A stretch of 64,000 bases of DNA, taken from positions 15,716 to 79,715 of the IMG/VR virus record IMGVR_UViG_2901802297_000002; one strand, given 5' to 3'. The notes beneath the pieces were generated by a model. That model was not told the origin of the DNA, ran no database searches, and saw only the letters and a list, made by a program, of their open reading frames with translations. The translations under genes were made by a program, and so were the position numbers. Source of the DNA: a virus. Its lineage: Duplodnaviria > Caudoviricetes. Positions within the stretch are counted from its first letter, which is position 1, and each line of letters starts with the position of its first letter. Positions 1,609-64,000 of this stretch are shown here, piece after piece.

Positions 1609-3386
1609 AGTTCCTCACGGTCATAAATGCTCTGGATCGGTGGCTCCGGGTTTCGGCTCATGCAGGCCACGGCATCAAACAGCGCCATCAGCGGGTCGAT
1701 CTTCTTGCCGCCTGCCATCTGCTTGGTAATTTCGATATTGTTGCCCTTGGCCTGCGCCTTCGCGTTGCCAACCGCCCAGGCCATGATCGGACGCGCCCCA
1801 TGGGAGAACGTGCCATCCGCCAGCTTGCGCTCCAGCGTCTTGATGGCCCCGGTCATTTTCCAGCCCTGGCTGATCCCGACAATCCGCTCCTGCTCAATGC
1901 CACGGGCATGCAGGGCAAACACGATTTCAGCCACACCCGCAGGATCCAGCCCAACCATGGCCAGCTTGCCGGACTGGTCAATCATCTCCGCCACGTCCGC
2001 CAGCTGCCGATTGTCGTCACGCATTTCATGGACAATGACGAGATCACCCTGCTTCTGGAAATCCAGATAGCGCGGTGCTTCCTCCTTGCGGTGCTTCAGC
2101 ACATCCTGAAACACCCAGCTGCGCTGCCAGTGCAGCCAATCGCCACTTTCTTCATCCCGGCCGAGCACAGCCAGAGATAGAAAATCGTCCAGACCGCCGC
2201 CATCAATGCCGCAGACAATCACATCAGAACATTCCAAAATCAGCTCCAGTGTGACCAGCGGATCACCCTGGCGTTCCCAATATTTGGCCCCGGCCCATGC
2301 CTTTTCGCGCAGGGACATGCCCATTTCCACGTTCAGATGCTTGGCCATCCAGACGCGCAGCACGCCTTCCCCAGCCTCTTTGGCCTGAGCGTATCTATCC
2401 CGCAGGAACTCATCCGATACCGACACCCCCAGATTGGGGTTGGTCATGTACCAGTTATCCGGATTGTGCTCGCCTTTCTTATCCAGAATTTTCTTGGGAA
2501 ATTCATAGATAACCGGCAGGAAACGGGGCGAATTGATCTTGCCGTCCCGCACGCCACGCGCATATTCCAGACGGCTCTTAAACACACCGGCAGGCTCTTC
2601 ATCCGACTGCGTGCTCAGGTAAATGATGAAGCCTTCCGGACGGGAGGCGATGCCGCCAGTGGCTTCCATGAGCATGTTCTCAGCCGTGGGCTTCTTGCCG
2701 AACTCCCACAGTTCATCCACCAGAATGCCGGTGGCTTTCTTGCCCACAACAGAAGATCCATCTGCCGCCACAACCTTGAGTGTCGCCCCGGTTTCGCGGT
2801 GCGTCACGATGCGGGTGTAATCCTGCACATGGAACAGGGCATCCAGTTCCGGATCTGCCTTGATCATGTCCCGCGCAGGCTTGAAGGCGTTGTCTGCGGC
2901 TTCCTTGGTCGGTGCCAGGATCAGGAACTCGGCTGATTGCCGCCAGTTCAGGATCAGCACCGTCAACATTACGCCCGCCGCAATGGTGCTTTTGGTGTTC
3001 TTCTTGCTCACCAGCAGGAAAAACTCGGTGATCATGCGCTTTCCGGTTTCCGGGTCATATGAACCGAAAATGGCGGCCGCAAAGTCCTTCAGCCAATCAC
3101 GGCAGGATTCACCAATAGTGGGTTCACCCAGCACGTCCACGATCTTCAGGGCGTTGAAAACAGCCATTCCCTGCGCAGCGGCGTCCGGAAAAAGCAGATC
3201 ACATGGCACAAGGCTTTCGCCTGCAATGATGCGCTTTTCCCAATCCCGGCAGGCTGTGCTCCATGACAGGACAGCCTTGGCCGCAGGCGCTGCCTTGCGC
3301 CGTGTGGTGGCTGTTGCGGTCTTTCGCGCGGTGGTTGTCGCCTTGCGCTTGCGTGTTGCGGGCTTTTTCTCGGTTTCACTTGCCAT
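1596..3386 (-). CDS. terL: Terminase large subunit
   Basis: Walker A-like SKKNTKST, LVDE Walker B, GIDGG and KIDPLMA nuclease motifs. Confidence 0.93.
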   Translation of the reverse strand: MASETEKKPATRKRKATTTARKTATATTRRKAAPAAKAVLSWSTACRDWEKRIIAGESLVPCDLLFPDAAAQGMAVFNALKIVDVLGEPTIGESCRDWLKDFAAAIFGSYDPETGKRMITEFFLLVSKKNTKSTIAAGVMLTVLILNWRQSAEFLILAPTKEAADNAFKPARDMIKADPELDALFHVQDYTRIVTHRETGATLKVVAADGSSVVGKKATGILVDELWEFGKKPTAENMLMEATGGIASRPEGFIIYLSTQSDEEPAGVFKSRLEYARGVRDGKINSPRFLPVIYEFPKKILDKKGEHNPDNWYMTNPNLGVSVSDEFLRDRYAQAKEAGEGVLRVWMAKHLNVEMGMSLREKAWAGAKYWERQGDPLVTLELILECSDVIVCGIDGGGLDDFLSLAVLGRDEESGDWLHWQRSWVFQDVLKHRKEEAPRYLDFQKQGDLVIVHEMRDDNRQLADVAEMIDQSGKLAMVGLDPAGVAEIVFALHARGIEQERIVGISQGWKMTGAIKTLERKLADGTFSHGARPIMAWAVGNAKAQAKGNNIEITKQMAGGKKIDPLMALFDAVACMSRNPEPPIQSIYDREELWES

Positions 3387-3972
3387 TGTTCACAACTAGT
3401 TTGGGGGAAGACATGCGTGAGAACTTGCCGCTGGCTGCTTTTTCGGCAGCTTCCCGGCGCTCTTCCTTCACGCCCTTCTTTTTTCCGGAACCCGTGACGC
3501 CCATCATGTGGGTTTGCCTCAGCTTGTGCAGGCTTTCCGTGCGCTCTTTGATAGTGATGGCCTTCAACATCGCATCGCGCCGGCGCGATCCGGTATCGTC
3601 TGCTGTTTCCAGCTCAATCGCTTTGGAAATCTCGCCAAGATGGGATGTCGTATCCTCAAGTTCACCGAGCAGGCGCGACACCATTTCATCCATACGTTCA
3701 TCCACGTTGGCAGCAGATCTGCGCCCGGTGGATGGTAGTTTCTCCCGTGGTAGAGCGGGGTTGCGCTGGGGATTGTGCGCAGGTTGGTGCGCAGTTTTGG
3801 TATTTTTGCGCACTTTTTGCGCAGAAGTGCGCACCCATCCACCGGACGCAATGCGCTTGCGCAGCGTGCTTTCGGCTACGCCATGTTTTTTTGCAATTTG
3901 GCGGTTTGACAAGGCTCCTGCGCGAAAATCAGCCTCTATCGCGTGCCAATCCGTGTCAGTTTTCTTGGGCAT
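3376..3972 (-). CDS. terS: Terminase small subunit
   Basis: N-terminal HTH (DWHAIEADFRAG..SNRQIAKKHGV); overlaps the terL start. Confidence 0.8.
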   Translation of the reverse strand: MPKKTDTDWHAIEADFRAGALSNRQIAKKHGVAESTLRKRIASGGWVRTSAQKVRKNTKTAHQPAHNPQRNPALPREKLPSTGRRSAANVDERMDEMVSRLLGELEDTTSHLGEISKAIELETADDTGSRRRDAMLKAITIKERTESLHKLRQTHMMGVTGSGKKKGVKEERREAAEKAASGKFSRMSSPKLVVNNGK

Positions 3973-4014
3973 TCCCTACCATCCCGCGCAACAAAAGTGC
4001 GCACTTCAAAACGC

Positions 4015-4100
4015 TGGAACGAAAAATTTTTCACGCGTGCCACTGGCGCGGTTCAGGTGCCATGCGTCAGGCGCACTTTTACCCCTCCCCCTCCCCGCTA
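4015..4100 (-). other. Candidate cos/packaging-initiation region of prophage A
   Basis: GGGGAGGGGGAGGGG...CACGCGTGAAAAATTTTT between HNH and terS, the usual cos position in HNH-terS phages. Confidence 0.45.
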
Positions 4101-4126
4101 AACGCATAGCTGGGGGATGCTCAAAA

Positions 4127-4182
4127 ATACACACTGATACACACTTTTTGCATTGCTCTTGGTGTGTTTTTGTGTGTATGAT
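4127..4182 (+). promoter_or_regulatory. hicAB promoter/operator
   Basis: ATACACAC x2 (4127, 4137) facing GTGTGT/GTGTGTAT (4162, 4172); TTGCTC-18-TATGAT promoter 7 nt before the ATG. Confidence 0.6.
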
Positions 4183-4189
4183 TATGTGC

Positions 4190-4378
4190 ATGGACAGCAG
4201 AGAGATCATCAAGAAGATCAAGGCAGATGGCTGGTATCTTGTCGCCACGAAAGGCAGTCATCAGCAGTTCAAGCACCCGACAAAACCCGGTCGGGTAACG
4301 GTGCCTCACCCTAAGCGGGATCTTCCACTCGGCACTCTGCGGAGCGTAGAGAAACAATCAGGGGTCAAACTGAAATGA
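4190..4378 (+). CDS. hicA: HicA mRNA interferase toxin
   Basis: MDSREIIKKIKADGW...KGSHQQFKHPTKPGRVTVPHP signature. Confidence 0.93.
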   Translation: MDSREIIKKIKADGWYLVATKGSHQQFKHPTKPGRVTVPHPKRDLPLGTLRSVEKQSGVKLK

Positions 4379-4764
4379 GCGACTATATCGCGATCATCCA
4401 CAAAGAGCCCGAAAGTGATTTCGGGGTCAGCTTTCCAGATTTTCCCGGCTGCATCACAGCAGGCTCTTCATTGGAAGAAGCCCGGAAAATGGCCCAGGAA
4501 GCCTTGGAATTCCATATCTCTGGCATGACAGAAGATGGTGAGCCCATCCCTGCGCCATCGCCTTTGGATAAGGTCATGCAGGATCCGAACTTTGCTCAAG
4601 GTGTCGCCTTCATGGTTCATGTTCGGCTGCCTTCCAAAGCCGTGCGTGTGAACGTCACGTTGGATGAAAGCCTTGTGTCCGCCATTGCAGCTGTCAGCAA
4701 AAACCGCTCCAAATTTCTGGCTGAAGCCGCATGGGAAAAACTGAACCGTAATCAGGCTGTATAA
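4375..4764 (+). CDS. hicB: HicB antitoxin with C-terminal RHH
   Basis: FGVSFPDFPGCITAG..LEEA and RVNVTLD; ATGA overlap with hicA. Confidence 0.93.
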   Translation: MSDYIAIIHKEPESDFGVSFPDFPGCITAGSSLEEARKMAQEALEFHISGMTEDGEPIPAPSPLDKVMQDPNFAQGVAFMVHVRLPSKAVRVNVTLDESLVSAIAAVSKNRSKFLAEAAWEKLNRNQAV

Positions 4765-4777
4765 GCCTGCTTACCGC

Positions 4778-5107
4778 TCAATATTCCTGCTTATATCGCT
4801 CTGCCCGCGCCCGTGCGGTCTTGGCGGTATGGCAGGATCCGCAGAGCAACTGGACGTTGTTCTCGTCTAGCGGTGCGCCGCCGTCCTTCAGCTCCTGAAT
4901 GTGATCCCCAAAGAGCCGCGTGCCGGTGCGGCCGCACTGTTCACAGCAATGAGGCCGCTTGCGCTTGATGGATGCCATCAGGGCACGCCACTCACGGCTA
5001 GTATAAAAGCCGTCAGCGCGTTTGGGTGGCTCTTTGGCTATGCTGGTATCCAGAACGCCTACAAGCGGCCTCATGCACGTCAGAACGGCTTTCTTGCGGC
5101 TGCTCAT
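4778..5107 (-). CDS. Terminase-associated HNH endonuclease
   Basis: FYTSREW, CEQC, DHI, N..LLCGSCH. Confidence 0.9.
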   Translation of the reverse strand: MSSRKKAVLTCMRPLVGVLDTSIAKEPPKRADGFYTSREWRALMASIKRKRPHCCEQCGRTGTRLFGDHIQELKDGGAPLDENNVQLLCGSCHTAKTARARAERYKQEY

Positions 5108-5736
5108 GTGGTGGCCACGTCAAGCTTGGACAGGTCAAACGTTACCAGCTCCCACTTGGCATCTGGCGATGGCCGCCGGTGCAGCCGCACGTAGTCCTTG
5201 GTCACATCCACGCGCACGCTGTCAGAAATCGCCTGCATGCCGCGCTGCCATTCCTCATCGTCAATCTCCAGACGCCGCAGCGCGAGGATCTTGCCAACGT
5301 TCATGCTGCCCTGCTTGTCTACGTCAAACGCATCCAGCACCACAGCTTTCAGATTGGCGTTGGCACCTTCAGACCAGCGGTTCAGGCAACCATGGATCAG
5401 CGTTTGCGCCGCCTGAATTTCAGGGCCAAACGAAATGACGTTGCCGACCGCCACAGTCACGCGCAGCGTGCCATCATAGCTGGTCAGGGTAACGTTGCCT
5501 TTCTCGCTGCCCAGCTTGGTGCTGTATTGCTCGGCCACCAGATCCAGAAAGGCGTTGATCTCCGCAAAGCAGAGCCGCTTGAAATCCATCATGAACTGCC
5601 GCACCGGCTCGGCTTCATGGTGCAAACGGCGCACCAGCTCATCTTGCAGCTTGTCAGATGGTCGGACATTCGCTTCCGGCACCAAGCGCCCGCGACTGTC
5701 CTGCATGAAACCGTCAGGCACGGTTTGCATTGTCAT
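5104..5736 (-). CDS. DUF3164-family phage protein
   Basis: GFMQDSRGRLVP, KGNVTLTSYDG, ISFGPE, W..GM.AI.DS; paralogue at 48171..48803. Confidence 0.8.
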   Translation of the reverse strand: MTMQTVPDGFMQDSRGRLVPEANVRPSDKLQDELVRRLHHEAEPVRQFMMDFKRLCFAEINAFLDLVAEQYSTKLGSEKGNVTLTSYDGTLRVTVAVGNVISFGPEIQAAQTLIHGCLNRWSEGANANLKAVVLDAFDVDKQGSMNVGKILALRRLEIDDEEWQRGMQAISDSVRVDVTKDYVRLHRRPSPDAKWELVTFDLSKLDVATT

Positions 5737-5773
5737 TCTCCATCGTTGTCAGAAACGCCCGCGCCGGTTGGCG

Positions 5774-6649
5774 TCAGGCCAGAAGGTCAGCGCCCGCAGC
5801 ATCTGCGCTGGCGTGGCTGTATCGTGTTGTCGTGGCCAGCGAACTGTGGCCAAGCTGGGCCTGCACCCAATGCACCGGCTGCCCCGCGTCCAACTGGTGT
5901 GACGCAAAAGCATGGCGCAGCCAGTGAGCAGAGACATCAGGCGGCAGGCCCGCTCGTTTTGCGGCCCGCTTCACAACGCGATCCACAGCGCGTTCATGAA
6001 GCAGGCCGCCATCGTGGCCGGGGATAACGGGCGCATCTGGCCCGACATCAGACCGCACAGCCGCGATCTCTTTCCACAACGATGGTGAAACCTGCACATG
6101 GCGGGTTTTGCCACCTTTGCCGAAAACCGTTGCAATGCCGCCCGATTGGCGGCGTGTCATATCGCGCCAGCGTAACGCGCAGGCTTCTGAAATCCGCAGG
6201 CCGGTGCCGTAAAGCAGCGCCAGCAACGCATGGCGGCGCGGATCCTTCTCACCCGCCAGCATGGCTAACACCTGCTGGCGCGAAAGAATGCGCTCATTCA
6301 GATTGTCGCGGCCACGCTCCATGCGGAACGCAGCGCCCGCATCCTGCGGTAGAAAGCCCAGCTTGTGGCCGTAGGTCAGCAGCGATTTCACGGCGCTGAT
6401 CTTGCGCCGGCGCGTGCTGTCCGCCGCATCGGCCATGCTGTCGTTCCATGCCTGAATGTCAGCCAGGGCAACATCTGCCATCGGCTTGGCAACAAAACGG
6501 GCGAACTCCGCAACATTGGTGCGATAGGCCCGCACCGTGTTGCTGCTGCGGTTGTGCAGCCACGTTTTGACCAGCGGAAGATCCGCACGGTGAATGCCAT
6601 CATCTGGCACTGCTGGCGCGGCTGATCTGGGCTGATCACCGCTAACCAT
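5774..6649 (-). CDS. XerC-like tyrosine recombinase (resolvase type, no arm-binding domain)
   Basis: Intact catalytic set: GLRISE, GKGGK, HWLRH, LGH, TTRY; 291 aa. Confidence 0.9.
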   Translation of the reverse strand: MVSGDQPRSAAPAVPDDGIHRADLPLVKTWLHNRSSNTVRAYRTNVAEFARFVAKPMADVALADIQAWNDSMADAADSTRRRKISAVKSLLTYGHKLGFLPQDAGAAFRMERGRDNLNERILSRQQVLAMLAGEKDPRRHALLALLYGTGLRISEACALRWRDMTRRQSGGIATVFGKGGKTRHVQVSPSLWKEIAAVRSDVGPDAPVIPGHDGGLLHERAVDRVVKRAAKRAGLPPDVSAHWLRHAFASHQLDAGQPVHWVQAQLGHSSLATTTRYSHASADAAGADLLA

Positions 6650-6691
6650 TTGATTTCCCTATATTATCGGGTCACTTCCAACCCTCAAAAT

Positions 6692-6794
6692 CCGTCAGAT
6701 AACAGATATTATCTGACGGGTTTGGGGGGTGTTCTGCGGGTTATCTGACACCTTGGCAGGTATGCCGTGTCAGATAATACCGCGTTATCATGAC
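6692..6794. other. Recombination (res) site: core CCGTCAGATAA-CAGATA-TTATCTGACGG plus accessory boxes
   Basis: Perfect 11-bp inverted repeat with 6-bp spacer at 6692-6719; TTATCTGACAC 6741, GTGTCAGATAA 6767, TTATCA 6785. Confidence 0.75.
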
Positions 6795-6799
6795 GCTTT

Positions 6800-6949
6800 T
6801 TACTGACATGCCTGAATGATTGCAGCCATGCCAGGCAATGCTTTTGCAACTGCAAATGCCAGAGCAACCAGCACAAGAGCAACAAAGCGCCATGCTTTGA
6901 GATCATTCATCACTTGTACCAAACGCCAGAGATCTTTAAGATCAGGCAT
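6800..6949 (-). CDS. 49-aa single-TM membrane micropeptide
   Basis: MPDLKDLWRLVQVMNDLKAWRFVALVLVALAF...; AGGA RBS; homologue at 49835..49996. Confidence 0.7.
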   Translation of the reverse strand: MPDLKDLWRLVQVMNDLKAWRFVALVLVALAFAVAKALPGMAAIIQACQ

Positions 6950-6982
6950 GTTCATTCCTGGAAAGGTCAGGGGTGGATACAA

Positions 6983-7017
6983 GAAACCCCCGCGCTGCTC
7001 GAACAGCCGGGGGTTTC
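6983..7017 (-). terminator. GC-rich hairpin (terminator or structured leader)
   Basis: GAAACCCCCG...CGGGGGTTTC; conserved at 50031..50065. Confidence 0.6.
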
Positions 7018-7019
7018 GC

Positions 7020-7430
7020 TTAATCGGATGGAGCACCGCCAACCTTGCGGCCGCAATCGCCCCATTTTGGCCCGCACCATGTTGTTTCCATCACGCCGGG
7101 TGGCAACTTCTCCACTGTGCGGGAAGCATGTTCTTTGCGTAGCGCGGCATCAATGCGCTGCATGTCGTGCTCAGCATACACCGCACCCGCTGGCAGTTCG
7201 CGCAGCGATTGCAGGTGGCCATATTTTTCGCATGCAAGGGCATCACATCGGGCAACCGTATTTTTCAGGCTACCAATGGCCCGCAAAATCACATCAGCCC
7301 GATGCCGTGGCAAACAATCTGGAACCATGCGCACGCAATGCGCCACATTTCCATCTGCCGAAACGACTAGAACAATCTTCTTCCCGCGCAGCAGAACAGC
7401 ACCACGGCAGATCTTCTGCCAGTGTTTCAT
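7020..7430 (-). CDS. Hypothetical protein, divergent PemK/MazF-like pattern
   Basis: ICRGAVL..KKIVLVVS..H..V.L..ARCD..MQRIDAAL; homologue at 50068..50475. Confidence 0.6.
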   Translation of the reverse strand: MKHWQKICRGAVLLRGKKIVLVVSADGNVAHCVRMVPDCLPRHRADVILRAIGSLKNTVARCDALACEKYGHLQSLRELPAGAVYAEHDMQRIDAALRKEHASRTVEKLPPGVMETTWCGPKWGDCGRKVGGAPSD

Positions 7431-7453
7431 GCGTTCAGCTTTTCAGAAGATAC

Positions 7454-7486
7454 AAAAAAAGCCGTGGCCCAGATGGACACACGACT
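7454..7486 (-). terminator. Late-leader intrinsic terminator (tR'-like)
   Basis: AGTCGTG...CACGGCTTTTTTT right after the putative late regulator; conserved at 50501..50534. Confidence 0.7.
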
Positions 7487-16590: not shown

Positions 16591-16826
16591 TGAGAGGAAT
16601 GATTGCAGCACCTACCCGCCGTATTCTCAACATGAAGGAAGCGGCTTCATACATGGGTATGTCTGTAACCACATTCAGGGAGCAAGTCGCGCCGCAAGTA
16701 AAAGGTGTAAGGGTGCTGCCGAAGCGCATTAGCTACGATGTAGAGGAATTAAACAGCTTTATTGATCGTATGTCAGGGAAATCAACGGATTCTCACGAAC
16801 AGAATTTCTGGGATAAATTCAGGTGA
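16587..16826 (+). CDS. xis: Excisionase (HTH_17/AlpA-like)
   Basis: LNMKEAASYMGMS.TTF...YDVEEL; overlaps the int start. Confidence 0.8.
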   Translation: MMRGMIAAPTRRILNMKEAASYMGMSVTTFREQVAPQVKGVRVLPKRISYDVEELNSFIDRMSGKSTDSHEQNFWDKFR

Positions 16827-17851
16827 CAATCATACGCCTGAAATACGTTCACAAGTTCCCCGGCCGCAATGGGAAGACTCGTTATTATCTCAGAAAGCCG
16901 GGGCATAAGCAGGCTAAGCTGCCAGATCCATCCAGCCCAGATTTCTATGCCGAATATCTGCGCCTCCTGAATGGGGACGCCCCAAAGATAGAAGTGCAGA
17001 AGTCTAAAACGATTGAAGGCAGCTTGCTTGACCTTATCGTGCAGTGGAAAACATCCCACAAATATAAAACCATCAAACAGAGCACGAAACAGGTATATGA
17101 TCGGCTTCTGAACAGAATAGCTGCAATGGATTGCGCTCAAGGCGCGGTCAAGCATATGGCTCCGCAAAATATTCGCTTCATCATGCGCCAATATGAAGAG
17201 GCAGGCCCCACAACAGCCAACCGCATATTAAGCATTCTCAGCATGATGCTGGACTACGCCATAGATATTGGCTGGCGTGATGATAACCCTGCCGTGGGTA
17301 TTAAGCGCCTGCAAATAAAATCCAAGGGCCTGCATTCTTGGTCTGATGCAGAGATTGAGAAATATCAGTCGCATTGGCCTACAGGCACAAAGCAGCGTCT
17401 GGCATTTGCTTTATTATTATATACGGGCCAGCGCAGAAGTGATGTTGTGCGCATGCGCCCAGATGATGTGTCTAGCGGAAGCATTAAGGTCACACAGCAG
17501 AAAACTGGGGCAAAGCTGGACATCCCCATTCATCCGAAACTTCAGGCAGAACTGAATGCTTGGCAGGATGTCGGTGCAGGAACATTCCTTGCCACAGAGT
17601 ATGGCAAGCCGTTTTCTGTGAACGGATTTTATAACAATTTTTCGGAATGGTGTCAGGAAGCCGGATTGCCCAAAGGATGCAGCCCACATGGGTTGCGCAA
17701 AGCAGCAGCCAGACTGCTTGCAGAAGCCGGCTGCACCACGCACCAGATCGCATCCATCACAGGGCACAAGACTCTATCAGAGGTGGAAAGATATACCCGT
17801 GCTGTGGAGCAGAAACGCCTAGCTCAAGAGGCCATGATCAAGATTGAATAA
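16823..17851 (+). CDS. int: Prophage A tyrosine integrase
   Basis: N-terminal arm-binding region; YTGQRRSD, QQKT, HGLRK, TGH, RY. Confidence 0.93.
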   Translation: MTIIRLKYVHKFPGRNGKTRYYLRKPGHKQAKLPDPSSPDFYAEYLRLLNGDAPKIEVQKSKTIEGSLLDLIVQWKTSHKYKTIKQSTKQVYDRLLNRIAAMDCAQGAVKHMAPQNIRFIMRQYEEAGPTTANRILSILSMMLDYAIDIGWRDDNPAVGIKRLQIKSKGLHSWSDAEIEKYQSHWPTGTKQRLAFALLLYTGQRRSDVVRMRPDDVSSGSIKVTQQKTGAKLDIPIHPKLQAELNAWQDVGAGTFLATEYGKPFSVNGFYNNFSEWCQEAGLPKGCSPHGLRKAAARLLAEAGCTTHQIASITGHKTLSEVERYTRAVEQKRLAQEAMIKIE

Positions 17852-17937: not shown

Positions 17938-18000
17938 TCAGTCAGGATAGGTTAATAAGTATTTGATTATAAGAAATAATTAAAAATAAATTATATGCGG

Positions 18001-18021
18001 ATACCCACAGGATTACCCACA
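18001..18021 (+). repeat. TACCCACA direct repeat (P4-type integrase arm sites)
   Basis: ATACCCACA-GGA-TTACCCACA about 65 bp inside the att core. Confidence 0.55.
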
Positions 18022-18120
18022 AATTTTGAGCGCTTGTATGTGATGCCTAAATGCCTTTCTATATGCATTAAGGTAAATTTCAGATCACCAACCAACACTT
18101 CCATGAAGCAGAATTTTGTT

Positions 18121-18834
18121 ATGCCAAACGATTCCATCGTCCATCACAATGCAACTTGGCATCCCGGCTCTGTACGTAATGCTGTCATGGATTCAGCCCG
18201 TAAACTGGTAGAATCTAAGATACCTGTGCCTCCGAAGTCCTTTTTTAGAAAGCTAGCTAATGAGGCAGAGACACTAGCTAATGAAGCAATCGCAGAAGCA
18301 ATCGCTTCTAAGGATGAAGCACCCGTTGCCCTTAATATTAAAATCGCTCATGACTTGTTTTATAATCTAAGCGATGACATTTTCCTTGCGACTGAAAATG
18401 CTAATGATCCTATCATTGCCCAGCTAGCTGCTTACTTCCTTCTCAATGCGATGGATGGTTATAATAAAGCCATTTACATGGATGCCTGGAACGGACATCC
18501 AGATCCAGAATGGGGTACAATCTGGGGCATCCATCAACGCATTCGGGACTTCACCCCGGCTTTCATATTCAAAGTCTGCATGCACGGTGATGTGCGTTTT
18601 CTGGCTGTAGAATGCCACGCACCGAATCGTCACCTTCCTGATGATCCTCGTGCACGTCTTCGTGCACGGACAATGATAGTATCAGGTCTGCCAGTGATCG
18701 CGTTTTCTCCAAATGAGATTAAGACAGATCCTGATGCATGTGTTTCTGAAGTGAACGAGGCGCTTGTAACTCTTGCGGAAGAATTGCTCTCGAATCCCCA
18801 AAAATATGATTTTCGTCCACAGACAGGCATATAG
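18121..18834 (+). CDS. Moron protein with degenerate DUF559/Vsr-like nuclease domain
   Basis: Q.RI....PAF....LAVECHA..H....R...G.PVIAFS..EI..DP.ACV pattern. Confidence 0.6.
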   Translation: MPNDSIVHHNATWHPGSVRNAVMDSARKLVESKIPVPPKSFFRKLANEAETLANEAIAEAIASKDEAPVALNIKIAHDLFYNLSDDIFLATENANDPIIAQLAAYFLLNAMDGYNKAIYMDAWNGHPDPEWGTIWGIHQRIRDFTPAFIFKVCMHGDVRFLAVECHAPNRHLPDDPRARLRARTMIVSGLPVIAFSPNEIKTDPDACVSEVNEALVTLAEELLSNPQKYDFRPQTGI

Positions 18835-18836
18835 AA

Positions 18837-18887
18837 TCGCCTTCACACGGCGGGGGGTCACAGGTTCAATACCTGTCGCACCCACCA
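18837..18887 (+). pseudogene. 3' two-thirds of tRNA-Val(CAC), att-like relic
   Basis: CGCC-TTCACAC-GGCG anticodon arm, ACAGG-TTCAATA-CCTGT T arm, ends in ACCA; no D arm or 5' strand. Confidence 0.8.
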
Positions 18888-19012
18888 CGGTTTTTCCTAG
18901 ATTTCTGCGACTTTTAGAGAATTTCTGGAATGTTGGTCAGTTCCAGTTAGGATCGTTTTATACCTATCAGAATCGATAAATCATCACCAAATCCGTGCAC
19001 GATTCTCAGGCC

Positions 19013-48028: not shown

Positions 48029-48207
48029 GACATCCCCGATTTTATGATGATGTATTGCAGCCGCCGTATTTCACGGTGCTGCTCTTCTAACTGGCGAGAT
48101 TTACGGCCCATTTCCCGGCGCAGTTTGAAATTCTCACGCCGCGCAGAAAGCACATCCGTCAGCCAGCGCTTCATGCCTTTGCCAGATCCAGCGATAACAT
48201 TTGCCAA
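48010..48207 (-). CDS. Hypothetical basic coiled-coil protein
   Basis: In-operon ORF. Confidence 0.45.
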   Translation of the reverse strand: MANVIAGSGKGMKRWLTDVLSARRENFKLRREMGRKSRQLEEQHREIRRLQYIIIKSGMSCDVKK

Positions 48208-48803
48208 GCCTGCTCCGGCGTTTCTCGCTTATGAAGCCGAAGATATGCCTTGCTGCTGTCGATACGAATGCTATCTGCAATAGCATCCATGGCCCGCTTC
48301 CACTGTGGCTCGTCTATATTGTGCCGGCGAAGACCAAGGATTTTCGTGGCGGAAAGTTTACCTTCTTTCCCCACATCGAACGCTTCCATCGCAATGGTTT
48401 TTAGGTTCGCGTTCGCGCCCTCAGACCACTCCTCAAAAAGTTCATCCAGCAGACTCTTGGCAACCTGCAGTTCAGGCCCAAAAGAAATGCTCTCACCCAT
48501 GCAAACAGACACGCGCAATCGGCCATCGTAGCTACTCAGCGTGGTATTGCCTTTCGGTCCACCAAGCTTGGCATGATATTTTTCATGCAGCAGAGATTGC
48601 AGCGCAGAAACCTCACTGAAACCGCGCTTCTTGAATTCTGCCAACTCTCTCGCCAGAAGCTTCGCTTGCGCATGAATGGCGCGAACCAGCTCATCTTCCA
48701 GAAGATCTTGCGGCTTTACCTGCGCAACAGGAACCAGACGCCCTTGAGCATCTTTCATATAGCCCTCGGGCACATCGTCCACGGGCTGGGGTGTGTCTGT
48801 CAT
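48171..48803 (-). CDS. DUF3164-family phage protein
   Basis: 210 aa, paralogue of 5104..5736. Confidence 0.8.
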   Translation of the reverse strand: MTDTPQPVDDVPEGYMKDAQGRLVPVAQVKPQDLLEDELVRAIHAQAKLLARELAEFKKRGFSEVSALQSLLHEKYHAKLGGPKGNTTLSSYDGRLRVSVCMGESISFGPELQVAKSLLDELFEEWSEGANANLKTIAMEAFDVGKEGKLSATKILGLRRHNIDEPQWKRAMDAIADSIRIDSSKAYLRLHKRETPEQAWQMLSLDLAKA

Positions 48804-48807
48804 GATG

Positions 48808-49698
48808 TCAGTCCAGATATTTTGCAGAGCCGTCACCCTCACGCACGTGAGAGTAACGTGTGGTTGTAGCGAGAGAGGCATGCCCCAGCGTGGCGCAAAC
48901 CACGTGGGCAGGCGCATTGTTGTCCAATGCGTGCGATGCGTGGGCGTGCCGGAGCCAATGCGCTGAGACACGCGATGACAATCCGGCACGCCGTGCTGCC
49001 CGCTTCACGACACGATGCGCCGCATCTTTCGAGAGCGAGCAGCCATCATGGCCGGGGATAACAGGCGCATCTGGCCCGCTATCAACCCTGAGCGCCATGA
49101 GTTCTTTGAACAGTTTGGCAGGAACCTGCACAGGTCGCGTCTTGTTTCCCTTACCGAAAACGGAAGCAACCGCGCCCTGCTGGCGGCGCGTCAGATCTCG
49201 CCAACGCAAAGCGCAGGCCTCTGAAATGCGCAGCCCCATACGGTACAGAACATTCAGCAGCGCTCGCTTGCGCGGCTCTTCTTCGCCGTCAATCAGCGCA
49301 ATCACCTGCTCACGGGTGAGAATGCGCTCATGCAGCGTGTCTCTCCCTCGCGCTATGCGAAATGCAGATCCTGCATCATGAGAAAGAACGCCAGTCCCCG
49401 CGCCGTAGGAAAGGAGAGATTTAACGGCTGATAATTTTCTTCTGCGCGTGGCATCGGAAGCATTGCCCATGCTGTCAAACCACGCCTGTAGGTCTGGCAA
49501 CACAATCTCGTTAAGTGATTTCCCGGCAAATGCCAGAAGGTCGCGCACGTCTCTCTCGTATGCGCGGCGCGTGTTCTCGCCACGGTTATGCAGCCACGTC
49601 CGGATGCACAGCTCATCGGCAGAAACTGGGGCGGCTTTCACCGCCTCTGGCGCGGGTGATCGGTTACGATCTCCGCTAACCATTTGTTTTCCATACAT
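48808..49698 (-). CDS. XerC-like tyrosine recombinase (resolvase type)
   Basis: GLRISE, GKGNK, HWLRH, LGH, TTRY; paralogue of 5774..6649. Confidence 0.9.
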   Translation of the reverse strand: MYGKQMVSGDRNRSPAPEAVKAAPVSADELCIRTWLHNRGENTRRAYERDVRDLLAFAGKSLNEIVLPDLQAWFDSMGNASDATRRRKLSAVKSLLSYGAGTGVLSHDAGSAFRIARGRDTLHERILTREQVIALIDGEEEPRKRALLNVLYRMGLRISEACALRWRDLTRRQQGAVASVFGKGNKTRPVQVPAKLFKELMALRVDSGPDAPVIPGHDGCSLSKDAAHRVVKRAARRAGLSSRVSAHWLRHAHASHALDNNAPAHVVCATLGHASLATTTRYSHVREGDGSAKYLD

Positions 49699-49725: not shown

Positions 49726-49828
49726 CCGCAAGATAACTACACTTATCTTGCGGGTTTTTGGGGTGCTGTACGACTTATCTTGCGGGTGCCCAATACTGGG
49801 GTGCCAGATAAGTCAGCGTTATCATTGC
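49726..49828. other. Recombination (res) site: core CCGCAAGATAA-CTACAC-TTATCTTGCGG plus accessory boxes
   Basis: Perfect 11-6-11 inverted repeat at 49726-49753; TTATCTTGCGG 49775, CCAGATAA ending 49811, TTATCA 49819. Confidence 0.75.
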
Positions 49829-49834
49829 GTCTTT

Positions 49835-59501: not shown

Positions 59502-59896
59502 CCGAAACCCGCGCACCGTTTAACGGGAAGAAAAAAGAGCTTTTTCTCATCCAGCTTCCAATGAGTGCTGAAAACGTCATGACTGTTCGCAAGCACATCA
59601 TGAGCCAATGCGTGACCAATGATGCCATCGTGAACGGTATCCGCGCCATTGGCATGCCGGCCACTGGCAGCAAAATGGATTACGAAGCCACGGTAGCTCA
59701 CTATGAAGCGAAACTTGCCGAGCGCGATGCAGAGATTTCACGCCTTTGGGCGGCCCTAGACAGCATTGAATGCGGCATAGATGCCCTGCCGGCCGACAAT
59801 GAATACGGTTCTCGTATATCCGCCCATCAAATGCAGTGGCAAGCGGTTGACCTTGTGAAGGAGGAAATTAAAGCCCTGAAAGGTGGTGGTGCATGA
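59498..59896 (+). CDS. Hypothetical phage protein
   Basis: ATGA coupling. Confidence 0.6.
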   Translation: MTETRAPFNGKKKELFLIQLPMSAENVMTVRKHIMSQCVTNDAIVNGIRAIGMPATGSKMDYEATVAHYEAKLAERDAEISRLWAALDSIECGIDALPADNEYGSRISAHQMQWQAVDLVKEEIKALKGGGA

Positions 59897-60357
59897 AGTT
59901 ATGTTCAGCCCCAATAACACTAACACGAGCGTTTGACTTTGTAGCGAAACACCATAGGCACAAAAAGCCCCCGCAGGGTGGATTATTTGCTGTATCAGCT
60001 GGATACGGTTCTGATTTAGTAGGTGTGGCTATTGTAGGGCGTCCTGTTAGCAGGCTCCAACAGGATGGGTACACAGCAGAGGTCACGCGATGTTGTGTTT
60101 TAGATAATGCCCCGAAAAATACGTGCTCGTTTCTGTACGGGTGCTGTTGGCGTGCAGCGCGAGCATTAGGATGGCGGAAACTTATTACCTACACACTAAA
60201 ATCAGAAAGCGGTGCTTCTCTGCGTGCATCAGGTTGGCGAACAATAGCTGAAACATCCGGTTCTAACCCCGCATCGTGGCAATCACGGTCCGGTCGAGAT
60301 TATCAAAATGTTGTTGGACAATCAAAATTCGTTTGGATGAAAGGCCCAGAAGCATGA
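59893..60357 (+). CDS. XF1762-like GNAT-fold protein
   Basis: HHRH, VGVAIVGRPV.R, EVTR.C, TYTL.SE.GASL. Confidence 0.8.
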   Translation: MKLCSAPITLTRAFDFVAKHHRHKKPPQGGLFAVSAGYGSDLVGVAIVGRPVSRLQQDGYTAEVTRCCVLDNAPKNTCSFLYGCCWRAARALGWRKLITYTLKSESGASLRASGWRTIAETSGSNPASWQSRSGRDYQNVVGQSKFVWMKGPEA

Positions 60358-62818: not shown

Positions 62819-64000
62819 TTATCCGTTCAGTATTAAATTAGCCCATATAGTAGCTAGCTCTCGACGCCTATCAATATATAGTGCCCGGTTATAAGCCGCC
62901 GCCACTTTATCCTTGGATGCATGCGCAAGCATTAACTCAATCACATCATGATCCAGTGGGAAGCGCTCATTCATATTACTGGAGAATGTGGAGCGGAATC
63001 CATGCGGAACATGGCGCCCATGGTATCCAGCACGGTTGATCAAATACCCAATTGCATTCTCACTCATCGGCAGCTTAGGGCGTCTGGTGTTGGGGAACAA
63101 ATGCGGCCAGCGGCTTGAAAATGGTCTCACGGCCTGGACTACATCTACGGCCTGCGGAGATAGTGGAACAATATGCTCCCGGCTCATCTTCATACGCTCA
63201 GCCGGGATAATCCAGACAGGCTCCTGCGAATCTAAGCCATGGAATTCATCCCACATGGCAGCCCGCACTTCACCCGGACGCACAGCTGTCAGATATAATA
63301 GCCGAAATGCCAGCAATGTAACCGGATGCGCCACACAGCTTTCTACACGTGCAATCATCTCACGCGCCTGCTCTAGGTCAGTGATGGCAGGTTGACGATT
63401 GCGTATTACAGGGCGCAGCGCAGGTTTAACAATTCCGGCCGGATCTGTGTCTGCTCTCTCTGTTGCTATAGCATGTACAAACACATCGCTCATACGCTGG
63501 CGGATCCTATGCGCTGTTTCCACCGCTCCGCGCTCTTCAATACCTTTTAATATATGCAGCACAACCCGAGGTGTAATTTGTCCTGGCGGCAGATGCCCTA
63601 TGTGAGGGAACACATCACGCTCCAGACTGTGGATTACATCATAAGCATGCCTTGGCCGCCATAAATCCTTCCTCTGCTCGTACCACTCTCTGGCAACTGC
63701 CTCAAAGCTATCTTGCTGTTGAGGCTCAGCCAACAGGTGAGCAACCTTCCCTGCCTTATTCGGGTCTATCCCCTGCCGAAGCAGATCCTTAGCATTGTCA
63801 CGCATCATGCGTGCCTCACGCAAACCTACGGATGGATATGGCCCCAACGTAAGGGTCTGCTCTTTCCCTTGCTGCCGGTAACGCAGGCGCCAGAACTTCT
63901 TGCCTGTGGGCATTACATGCACAAACAGCCCTTCACTATCAGAAAGGCGATAGGCTTTCTCGGCTGCCTTAGCTGTCTTGACCTTGGAATCTGTCAGCAT
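62819..64000 (-). CDS. int: P4-like tyrosine integrase of prophage B
   Basis: MLTD..V, D.EGL..V.PTG.K.W, LG.YP arm domain; R..E, MK, HGFR, LAH, AYN. Confidence 0.95.
   Translation of the reverse strand: MLTDSKVKTAKAAEKAYRLSDSEGLFVHVMPTGKKFWRLRYRQQGKEQTLTLGPYPSVGLREARMMRDNAKDLLRQGIDPNKAGKVAHLLAEPQQQDSFEAVAREWYEQRKDLWRPRHAYDVIHSLERDVFPHIGHLPPGQITPRVVLHILKGIEERGAVETAHRIRQRMSDVFVHAIATERADTDPAGIVKPALRPVIRNRQPAITDLEQAREMIARVESCVAHPVTLLAFRLLYLTAVRPGEVRAAMWDEFHGLDSQEPVWIIPAERMKMSREHIVPLSPQAVDVVQAVRPFSSRWPHLFPNTRRPKLPMSENAIGYLINRAGYHGRHVPHGFRSTFSSNMNERFPLDHDVIELMLAHASKDKVAAAYNRALYIDRRRELATIWANLILNG

Follow-up and report, generated by a model that had tools for sequence, protein, structure and literature searches.

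Why should a temperate phage that has a conventional integrase carry a second, smaller tyrosine recombinase between its early region and its packaging genes, and why should a palindromic DNA element lie just upstream of that gene? The question is raised by a 64-kb stretch of DNA (the window) within a 79,715-bp IMG/VR provirus record, whose host is an acetic acid bacterium. Two related prophages lie side by side in the window; prophage A starts outside the window on the left and runs to about 18.9 kb, and prophage B from about 19.5 kb to the right edge. Both have the second recombinase gene, and in both this gene is preceded by an 11-6-11 inverted repeat, termed here the core, together with three boxes that resemble the core arms. 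We consider that the recombinase probably recombines this site. Our best explanation as a whole, in which our confidence is about evenly divided, is that gene and site constitute a self-contained Xer-type site-specific recombination module that resolves phage multimers.

Temperate phages with an extra tyrosine recombinase in a late or junction region have been described repeatedly, and the recombinase is left unexplained in the available portions of the reports (PMC9703825, PMC3335513). The present module offers a tractable case, having a clear cognate site and a relative, the Acetobacter phage phiAP1, which is inducible and for which a cured host, C-27, and a transformation system are described in the available text of PMC8566455.

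The second recombinase and its site

The recombinase of prophage A is composed of a catalytic domain (Pfam Phage_integrase PF00589, E = 3.6e-28, 98.9 bits vs. a cut-off of 27.1) and a core-binding domain (Phage_int_SAM_1 PF02899, E = 1.2e-07, 32.3 bits vs. a cut-off of 22.3). No Pfam match to an Arm-DNA-bind domain was obtained in this protein, which places it outside the lambda Int type and agrees with its description as arm-less in an earlier note on this DNA. The best NCBIfam scores are those of XerC (159.1 vs. an equivalog cut-off of 335), XerA (144.4 vs. 220) and XerD (142.8 vs. 330), all far below the cut-offs; XerS scores 65.2 vs. 267. Membership in XerC, XerD, XerA or XerS proper was rejected on these scores and on the location of gene and site inside prophages, not at a chromosome terminus. 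The closest sequences of solved structure are archaeal Xer, IntI4 and XerD, and the AlphaFold model of recombinase A (predicted local distance difference test, pLDDT, 85.7) folds like XerA, IntI4, XerH, XerD, the core of lambda Int, and Cre. Recombinases A and B share 62% identity across 279 amino acids, and gene PhiAP1_290 of phiAP1, a member of the same clade as B, encodes a product identical to recombinase B. All 51 site-linked proteins, which span about 40-100% identity, have retained R152, K178/K181, H242, R245, H268 and Y277, and the R, K, H-x-x-R, H, Y set is invariant in the 17 sequences that were aligned (44-84% identity).

The core of prophage A is separated by 42 bp from the ATG at 6649, and cores are found at an equal position before the conserved start codon in relatives. 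Counted from 6709, the first base of the right arm, TTATCTGAC starts at 6741 (+32), GTGTCAGATAA ends at 6777 (+68) and TTATCATGACG starts at 6785 (+76). In prophage B, box 2 starts at 49775 (+32), box 3 ends at 49811 (+68) and box 4 starts at 49819 (+76), the same offsets as in A. The layout proposed in the earlier note, a core 42 bp upstream of the gene with three arm-like boxes, was thus reproduced in A in every coordinate and offset, and its recurrence in B with another arm and another spacer was confirmed. The exact 9-mer TTATCTGAC has five copies in the window, four of which are within the 90-bp site, and the core pattern of B found no match in 100 shuffles. The palindrome exceeds the 11-bp arms, reaching 22 nt per arm in A (86% pairing) and 15 nt in B (93%). 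The positions of the features are collected in Table 1. We also note a terminator-like hairpin on the + strand at 6782-6796, GCGTTATCATGACGC followed by TTTTT, which overlaps box 4 of A.

Table 1. Features of prophages A and B in window coordinates.
Feature	Position	Strand	Description
Recombinase A	5774..6649	-	291 amino acids; Xer-type two-domain tyrosine recombinase; ATG at 6649
Core A	6692..6719		CCGTCAGATAA 6692-6702, spacer CAGATA 6703-6708, TTATCTGACGG 6709-6719; perfect 11-6-11
Extended palindrome A	6681..6730		A- and C-runs on one side, T- and G-runs on the other
Box 2 of A	6741..6751	+	TTATCTGACAC on + strand; arm copy, 20 bp from core
Box 3 of A	6767..6777	-	GTGTCAGATAA on + strand; inverted relative to box 2, 15 bp away
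Box 4 of A	6785..6795	+	TTATCATGACG on + strand; arm motif with one extra base
Recombinase B	48808..49683	-	conserved MVSGD start at 49683; open frame extends to 49698
Core B	49726..49753		CCGCAAGATAA-CTACAC-TTATCTTGCGG
Box 2 of B	49775..49785	+	100% match to arm
Box 3 of B	49803..49813	-	inverted-repeat pairs with arms
Box 4 of B	49819..49829	+	TTATCATTGCG
DUF3164 gene A	5104..5736	-	Pfam DUF3164, 1.3e-71; directly downstream of recombinase A
DUF3164 gene B	48171..48803	-	Pfam DUF3164, 2.3e-68; starts 4 nt past the recombinase B stop
Integrase A	16823-17851	+	conventional integrase at one end of prophage A
Integrase B	62819-64000	-	conventional integrase at one end of prophage B; arm-binding domain present (Pfam)

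Conservation in the phage clade and beyond

A genome scan with one genome per species gave 533 relatives of the recombinase in 600 candidate stretches, and the best 80 loci were retained. The register of the site was compared in 28 rows, namely the 25 Acetobacteraceae loci whose upstream DNA is long enough, the two copies in the window, and Komagataeibacter phage phiKM1. It is identical in all 28, one of which is cut by a contig end, and reads along the gene as box 4, 7 bp, box 3, 15 bp, box 2, 20 bp, core, 42 bp, start codon. More sites came from two pattern scans and a protein scan of viral contigs. In total, sites of the GATAA type amount to 62 distinct sequences with 18 spacers; the phiKM1-type sites provide a nineteenth. 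The layout shared by the two prophages is on these counts a conserved design and not a coincidence of two phages.

The arms fall into at least six types, GTCA, GCAA, GGGA (with GATAA), GGGA (with CATAA), GCCA and GACA/GGCA, and these follow the recombinase clades in a quick maximum-likelihood tree. Box 2 bears the arm type of its clade, and so does box 4 with one inserted base, as in GTCA-T-GATAA, GCAA-T-GATAA, GGGA-T-GATAA and GCCA-T-GATAA. For 104 core occurrences, 80 nt of upstream DNA could be compared; among these, box 2 is at most one mismatch from an arm in 91 and box 3 at most two mismatches in 86; the 13 failures of box 2 comprise six opposite-strand readings of sites already counted and seven distant loci. 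As to the covariation of arms among homologues, which the earlier note had named as a check, boxes 2 and 4 change with the arm type, and the arm type with the recombinase clade. The two arms are unequal in 25 of the 62 distinct cores, and the inequality persists in whole clades, which indicates that selection acts on half-sites rather than on hairpin pairing.

A tblastn search against 50,697 phage records matched 864 of them, and only phiAP1 and phiKM1 exceed 60% identity. Prophage B is almost the same virus as phiAP1, and their sites are the same. A third specificity, CAGGGACATAA-CTGTAG-TTATGCCCCGT, is found in phiKM1, where the spacing of the boxes is unchanged. We also note that two contigs of one metagenome-assembled Acetobacter genome (L012, L016) have the same arms and the same spacer, GTGCAG, and that co-resident sites differ in the window, in A. 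pasteurianus LMG 1262 (L006, L017) and in IMG genome 2529293253 (L088, L108).

The protein family reaches far beyond these phages, with 1545 proteins at E<=1e-20 among 8000 candidates scored. Relatives of 40-50% identity occur in cyanobacteria, Planctomycetota, Acidobacteriota, Chloroflexota, Methylobacterium and others, and 77 PLSDB plasmids have relatives at E<=1e-30. The neighbours of the distant relatives encode ParA, ribbon-helix-helix proteins, Prim-Pol or D5-type primases, ArdC, RepC and MobF relaxase. Partition and replication genes are the usual company of resolution systems, and their presence beside the plasmid relatives fits a role in resolution. Among viral contigs, a NusG-like gene (952-1713) is situated directly upstream of a homologous recombinase in L175, and a RepC replication gene (3254-4420) is found beside one in L178.

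Similar cores precede many of the distant relatives, examples being AAGCAAGATAA-GTCCCG-TTATCTTGCGT, ACGCAAGATAA-TGATAC-TTATCATGCGT and, on plasmid pCMU02, ACGCAAGACAA-GAATCG-TTATCTTGCGT; loci of Planctomycetota, Chloroflexota, Orenia and cyanobacteria have a core in the upstream position as well. Repeats of the 11-6-11 form in which 10 or all of the 11 positions pair occur upstream in 31 of 77 loci vs. 1 of 74 control stretches of the same loci, and 7 of the 77 loci reach this pairing in any of 20 shuffles. Outside the Acetobacter group the corresponding numbers are 17 of 53 loci and 1 of 50 control stretches. The earlier note had named the lack of such a core upstream of homologues as a refutation of its proposal, and such cores are present. 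Beyond pairing, the arm sequence itself is kept across phyla (xxGCAAGAxAA / TTATCTTGCxx). Accessory boxes are not above expectation in the 19 distant loci considered. As judged by sequence comparison, the gene with its core is an old and widespread module of plasmid-like DNA, and only the phage clade has the accessory boxes.

Known recombination modules and the role of the site

In streptococci and lactococci, the single Xer-type recombinase XerS has a dif-like site, difSL, immediately upstream of its own gene (PMC1914069, PMC5357621), and dif-type sites are described in the available text as two 11-bp inverted arms around a 6-8-bp centre (PMC5357621). The present cores, with their 11-bp arms and 6-bp centre, have the geometry of dif and fall within that of sites of Xer-type simple recombinases. 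As in XerS/difSL and XerH/difH, inverted arms surround a short centre, and site and gene make up one module. Those systems differ in being chromosomal, at the terminus and FtsK-dependent, whereas the present module resides in a prophage. Moreover, the centre is 11 bp in difSL and 6 bp here, where near-perfect arms are accompanied by three accessory boxes.

The earlier note compared the core and its boxes with the TnpI/IRS system of Tn4430. In the accessible part of the literature, this system is described as a ~100-bp site before the gene, composed of an inverted-repeat core and one-sided motifs bound by the same recombinase, in which the accessory motifs give resolution selectivity (PMC2847244). 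The principle, a core with boxes of the same motif on one side, holds for the present site. The arrangement does not: in the Tn4430 IRS, the two core motifs are 14 bp long and 4 bp apart, and the accessory motifs are a tandem pair of direct repeats (DR1-DR2), whereas here an 11-6-11 core is accompanied by boxes in direct, inverted and again direct orientation, the last with a 1-nt insertion. Tn4430 is a Tn3-family transposon and not a phage, and the likeness noted here is one of site layout.

In Cre/loxP of phage P1, the recombinase is encoded by the phage and its palindromic site adjoins the gene; the system is separate from packaging and acts on circular phage DNA. The present module likewise places a phage-borne recombinase, whose model fold matches Cre, beside a simple palindromic site. 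Unlike the present site, loxP is 13-8-13 and has no accessory motifs, and P1 is a plasmid prophage without an integrase, whereas the present phages integrate via another, arm-binding integrase. SGI1, which is not a phage and whose resolvase is of the serine type, offers a further comparison. It is an integrating element with a separate multimer-resolution system, according to the available text of PMC12217951.

Among phages, the Xer-like gp50 of the Bacillus tyroviruses is encoded in the late/structural module and has perfect 11-bp inverted repeats around 6 bp, its function being unexplained (PMC9703825), and p22 of Bacillus phage phIS3501 is named a 'second integrase' and has a late regulator as its neighbour (PMC3335513), as far as the available text of both papers goes. 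The gp50 site is found downstream of the stop codon, unlike the present one, and the available description does not mention accessory boxes or arm covariation. The first integrase of phiAP1 with a 24-bp attP integrates a vector into the tRNA-Ser gene of the cured strain, and the second 'integrase' is not discussed in the available text of that report (PMC8566455). The earlier note had placed the recombinase system apart from the integrase; a separate integrase is indeed present in each phage, the experiment with phiAP1 assigns integration to that other enzyme, and recombinase and site belong together. The word 'recombinase' is absent from the Acetobacter prophage survey PMC9379143, and no description of the present family or its box architecture was found in the literature searched, which excludes supplementary tables that could name the second recombinase. 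On the likeness of sites and genes, the module is a phage variant akin to XerS/difSL, TnpI/IRS and Cre/loxP.

In four host genomes, the pattern AGATAA-N6-TTATCT occurs at recombinase-linked sites only, plus one extra match, which was discarded as chance, being inside a coding sequence and non-palindromic beyond the pattern. One site per element fits a reaction between sister copies; it argues both against a switch that works by inversion or excision and against an attB of this form in the chromosome. A switch of an invertible or excisable segment, which requires two sites in cis, was rejected for this reason, and a role of the palindrome in attP x attB recombination was rejected as well, since it is intact in the integrated prophage and has no second host site apart from the chance match.

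In two clades the spacer is more variable than the remainder of the site, and proteins of identical sequence can have different spacers. Window A and locus L088 have identical proteins and spacers TATCTG vs. TCATTG; among close relatives of A, three of six spacer columns vary vs. 18 of 146 others (Fisher p 0.035), and in the Gluconobacter clade four of six vs. 37 of 146 (p 0.046). This variation gives weak support to the view that the spacer is the crossover region, which would need to match a sister copy only. The sites of A and B differ at two arm positions and four of six spacer positions, and it is plausible that the two recombinase/site pairs are orthogonal.

The reaction can be pictured as follows. 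Two protomers would bind the core and two occupied cores would synapse; the tyrosines would then cut at the arm-spacer borders, and strands would be exchanged across the spacer. Protomers bound at boxes 2-4 may shape the synapse and thereby bias the reaction to directly repeated sites on one molecule. As these boxes adjoin the promoter region of the gene, the same protomers may allow the recombinase to limit its own synthesis. In this manner the module would reduce circular multimers, whether of the excised circle or of phage DNA in replication, to unit circles, independently of the integrase that handles attP x attB. Multimer resolution is our leading reading of the biological role, although our confidence in that role by itself falls a little short of even.

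Several points weigh against this role. The recombinase gene heads the packaging operon, with TerL at most 6 kb downstream in 23 of 26 loci; as cos packaging requires multimers, a resolvase expressed with the packaging genes would counteract packaging. Boxes 2 and 3 do not consistently track the left or the right arm in cores with unequal arms (14 vs. 10 and 16 vs. 9, respectively), and a left/right specificity of these boxes was dropped as inconsistent. Their orientation departs, as described above, from the tandem repeats of Tn4430. In clade B the spacer has no excess of variation (1 of 6 columns vs. 60 of 146), and the excess elsewhere is weak. With a single site per genome, the product of recombination cannot be seen from sequence. 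Finally, the core is followed by ATTT or TTTT on the gene strand, with an A-run before it, in all 28 rows of the phage clade, and the gene-strand RNA is predicted to fold at -26 kcal/mol (z -5.5) in A and -30.1 kcal/mol in B, with none of 200 shuffles as stable. Given so stable a hairpin with a T-run, part of the conservation of the palindrome could serve termination.

The position of the gene suggests another use of the same reaction, in which the module would join monomer circles into two-cos dimers, or exchange DNA between co-infecting relatives at the early/late border. Site-specific recombination can provide packageable lambda dimers. The gene separates the early region from the terminase, no matter which of the two unrelated types of TerL comes next (23 of 26 loci, and also provirus L159), a 4-nt gap couples the recombinase of B to the next late-side gene, and the unexplained phage recombinases cited above are encoded in late or structural modules. 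Dimer formation is at odds with the one-sided accessory motifs of Tn4430, which favour intramolecular resolution in the available account (PMC2847244). As to exchange, recombinase clades associate with particular terminase types, so that frequent exchange at the site is not apparent. We regard this use of the module as unlikely. More doubtful still is a wider version, a late-expressed manager of the form of phage DNA, which would join or exchange circular genomes for two-cos packaging or arm swapping, with the palindrome as an occupancy-dependent terminator and the arm and spacer types as isolation barriers.

That the palindrome serves chiefly as an intrinsic terminator, or as a structure in DNA or RNA that divides early from late transcription, with arms that vary through compensatory changes and a secondary link to the recombinase, appears very improbable. 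The hairpin has 11-12 pairs and a 4-6-nt loop and is followed by the T-rich stretch in all 28 rows, its folding is as stable as stated, the loop (i.e., the spacer) is the most variable part in two clades, and the NusG-like gene of L175 lies directly upstream of a relative. The T-run, however, is short, and is mirrored by and pairs with the A-run; a terminator scan of the window did not list the core. TTTT follows only 1 of 23 distant cores, where the arm sequence itself is nevertheless kept. These distant arms, the unequal arms that persist in whole clades and the three extra arm copies in both orientations, which are useless to a terminator, indicate that termination is not the whole story. 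A double role of the palindrome, as recombination site and terminator, is possible. The earlier note was right about the site itself and had missed that palindrome and T-run also resemble a terminator.

RNA data add little here. RNA-library contigs from three libraries cover relatives at 90-99% likeness, and such contigs cannot show transcription; one of 12,985 nt spans 1638-7464, with DNA carry-over possible. The single RNA run with raw reads comes from a relative and has a depth below 5, and its five read starts at 6682 are too few for a transcript start.

We give equally little credence to the boxes being operators only, through which the protein would regulate its own gene or the late operon without recombination. 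Self-repression at res-type sites is common, the 150 bp preceding the gene contain the five motifs, the nearest of which stops 42 bp short of the start codon, and the accessory boxes are confined to the phage clade, where regulation of a late operon matters. Nevertheless, a mere DNA-binding regulator would have no need of the catalytic residues that are complete in all 51 site-linked proteins; the core has the geometry of a recombination site and accompanies plasmid relatives that have no late operon, and a simple scan found no sigma-70-like promoter between core and start codon.

If the module recombines, it would be a phage example of self-assembled accessory control of an Xer-type enzyme, and its relatives, with at least six types of arm and 19 spacers, could provide a natural collection of mutually exclusive recombinase/site pairs. 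If it does not, a catalytic-looking recombinase would have been kept for regulation. Natural variation shows the bases that set specificity.

Gene neighbourhood and further observations

Downstream of the recombinase, prophage A has DUF3164, then HNH, TerS and a TerL_ATPase-type terminase, and prophage B has DUF3164, then packaging genes with a GpA-type terminase (Pfam assignments). The DUF3164 gene follows the recombinase in 28 of the 80 genome loci and in provirus L159, where a 48%-identical recombinase, DUF3164, TerL and portal lie in a row, and it is constant within the phage clade. The structure model of the DUF3164 protein (pLDDT 79.1) gave no Foldseek match at E<=0.001, and VIA-align returned generic helical bundles only (best Z 6.2) and no recognisable fold. 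The available literature places DUF3164 in Mu-like phages only, and the protein may not be a functional partner of the recombinase. In phiAP1, the gene after the second 'integrase' (L001:13283-13915) is annotated 'sulfate transporter'; its position and length match those of DUF3164 gene B. For the two genes upstream of the recombinase, atlas look-ups returned 'hypothetical' and DUF6456 only.

The right part of prophage A ends in a 3' part of a tRNA with terminal CCA at 18836-18890, just past integrase A and the open reading frame (ORF) 17995-18834. This fragment is probably the att remnant of prophage A, and prophage B begins right after it, so that one 'provirus' record contains two prophages. 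ARAGORN reported no whole tRNA and an Rfam scan no family, and the 24-mer attB/attP of phiAP1 is absent from the window. In the early region of B, ORF 59893-60357 on the + strand shows a weak match to the Mom family (E 1.1e-05, 25.7 bits, below the cut-off of 27.1).

A hicA/hicB-like toxin-antitoxin pair, recognised from ORF translations, is located at 4190-4764 on the + strand, opposite to the HNH gene and terS of A between which it lies; it is missing from relatives in the RNA-library contigs, where 4107 is joined to 4801. We also note that a small membrane-protein gene at 6800-7042 on the - strand is missing in one relative, in which the contig joins 6798 to 7020. This joint marks a mosaic boundary 3 nt beyond box 4 of A.

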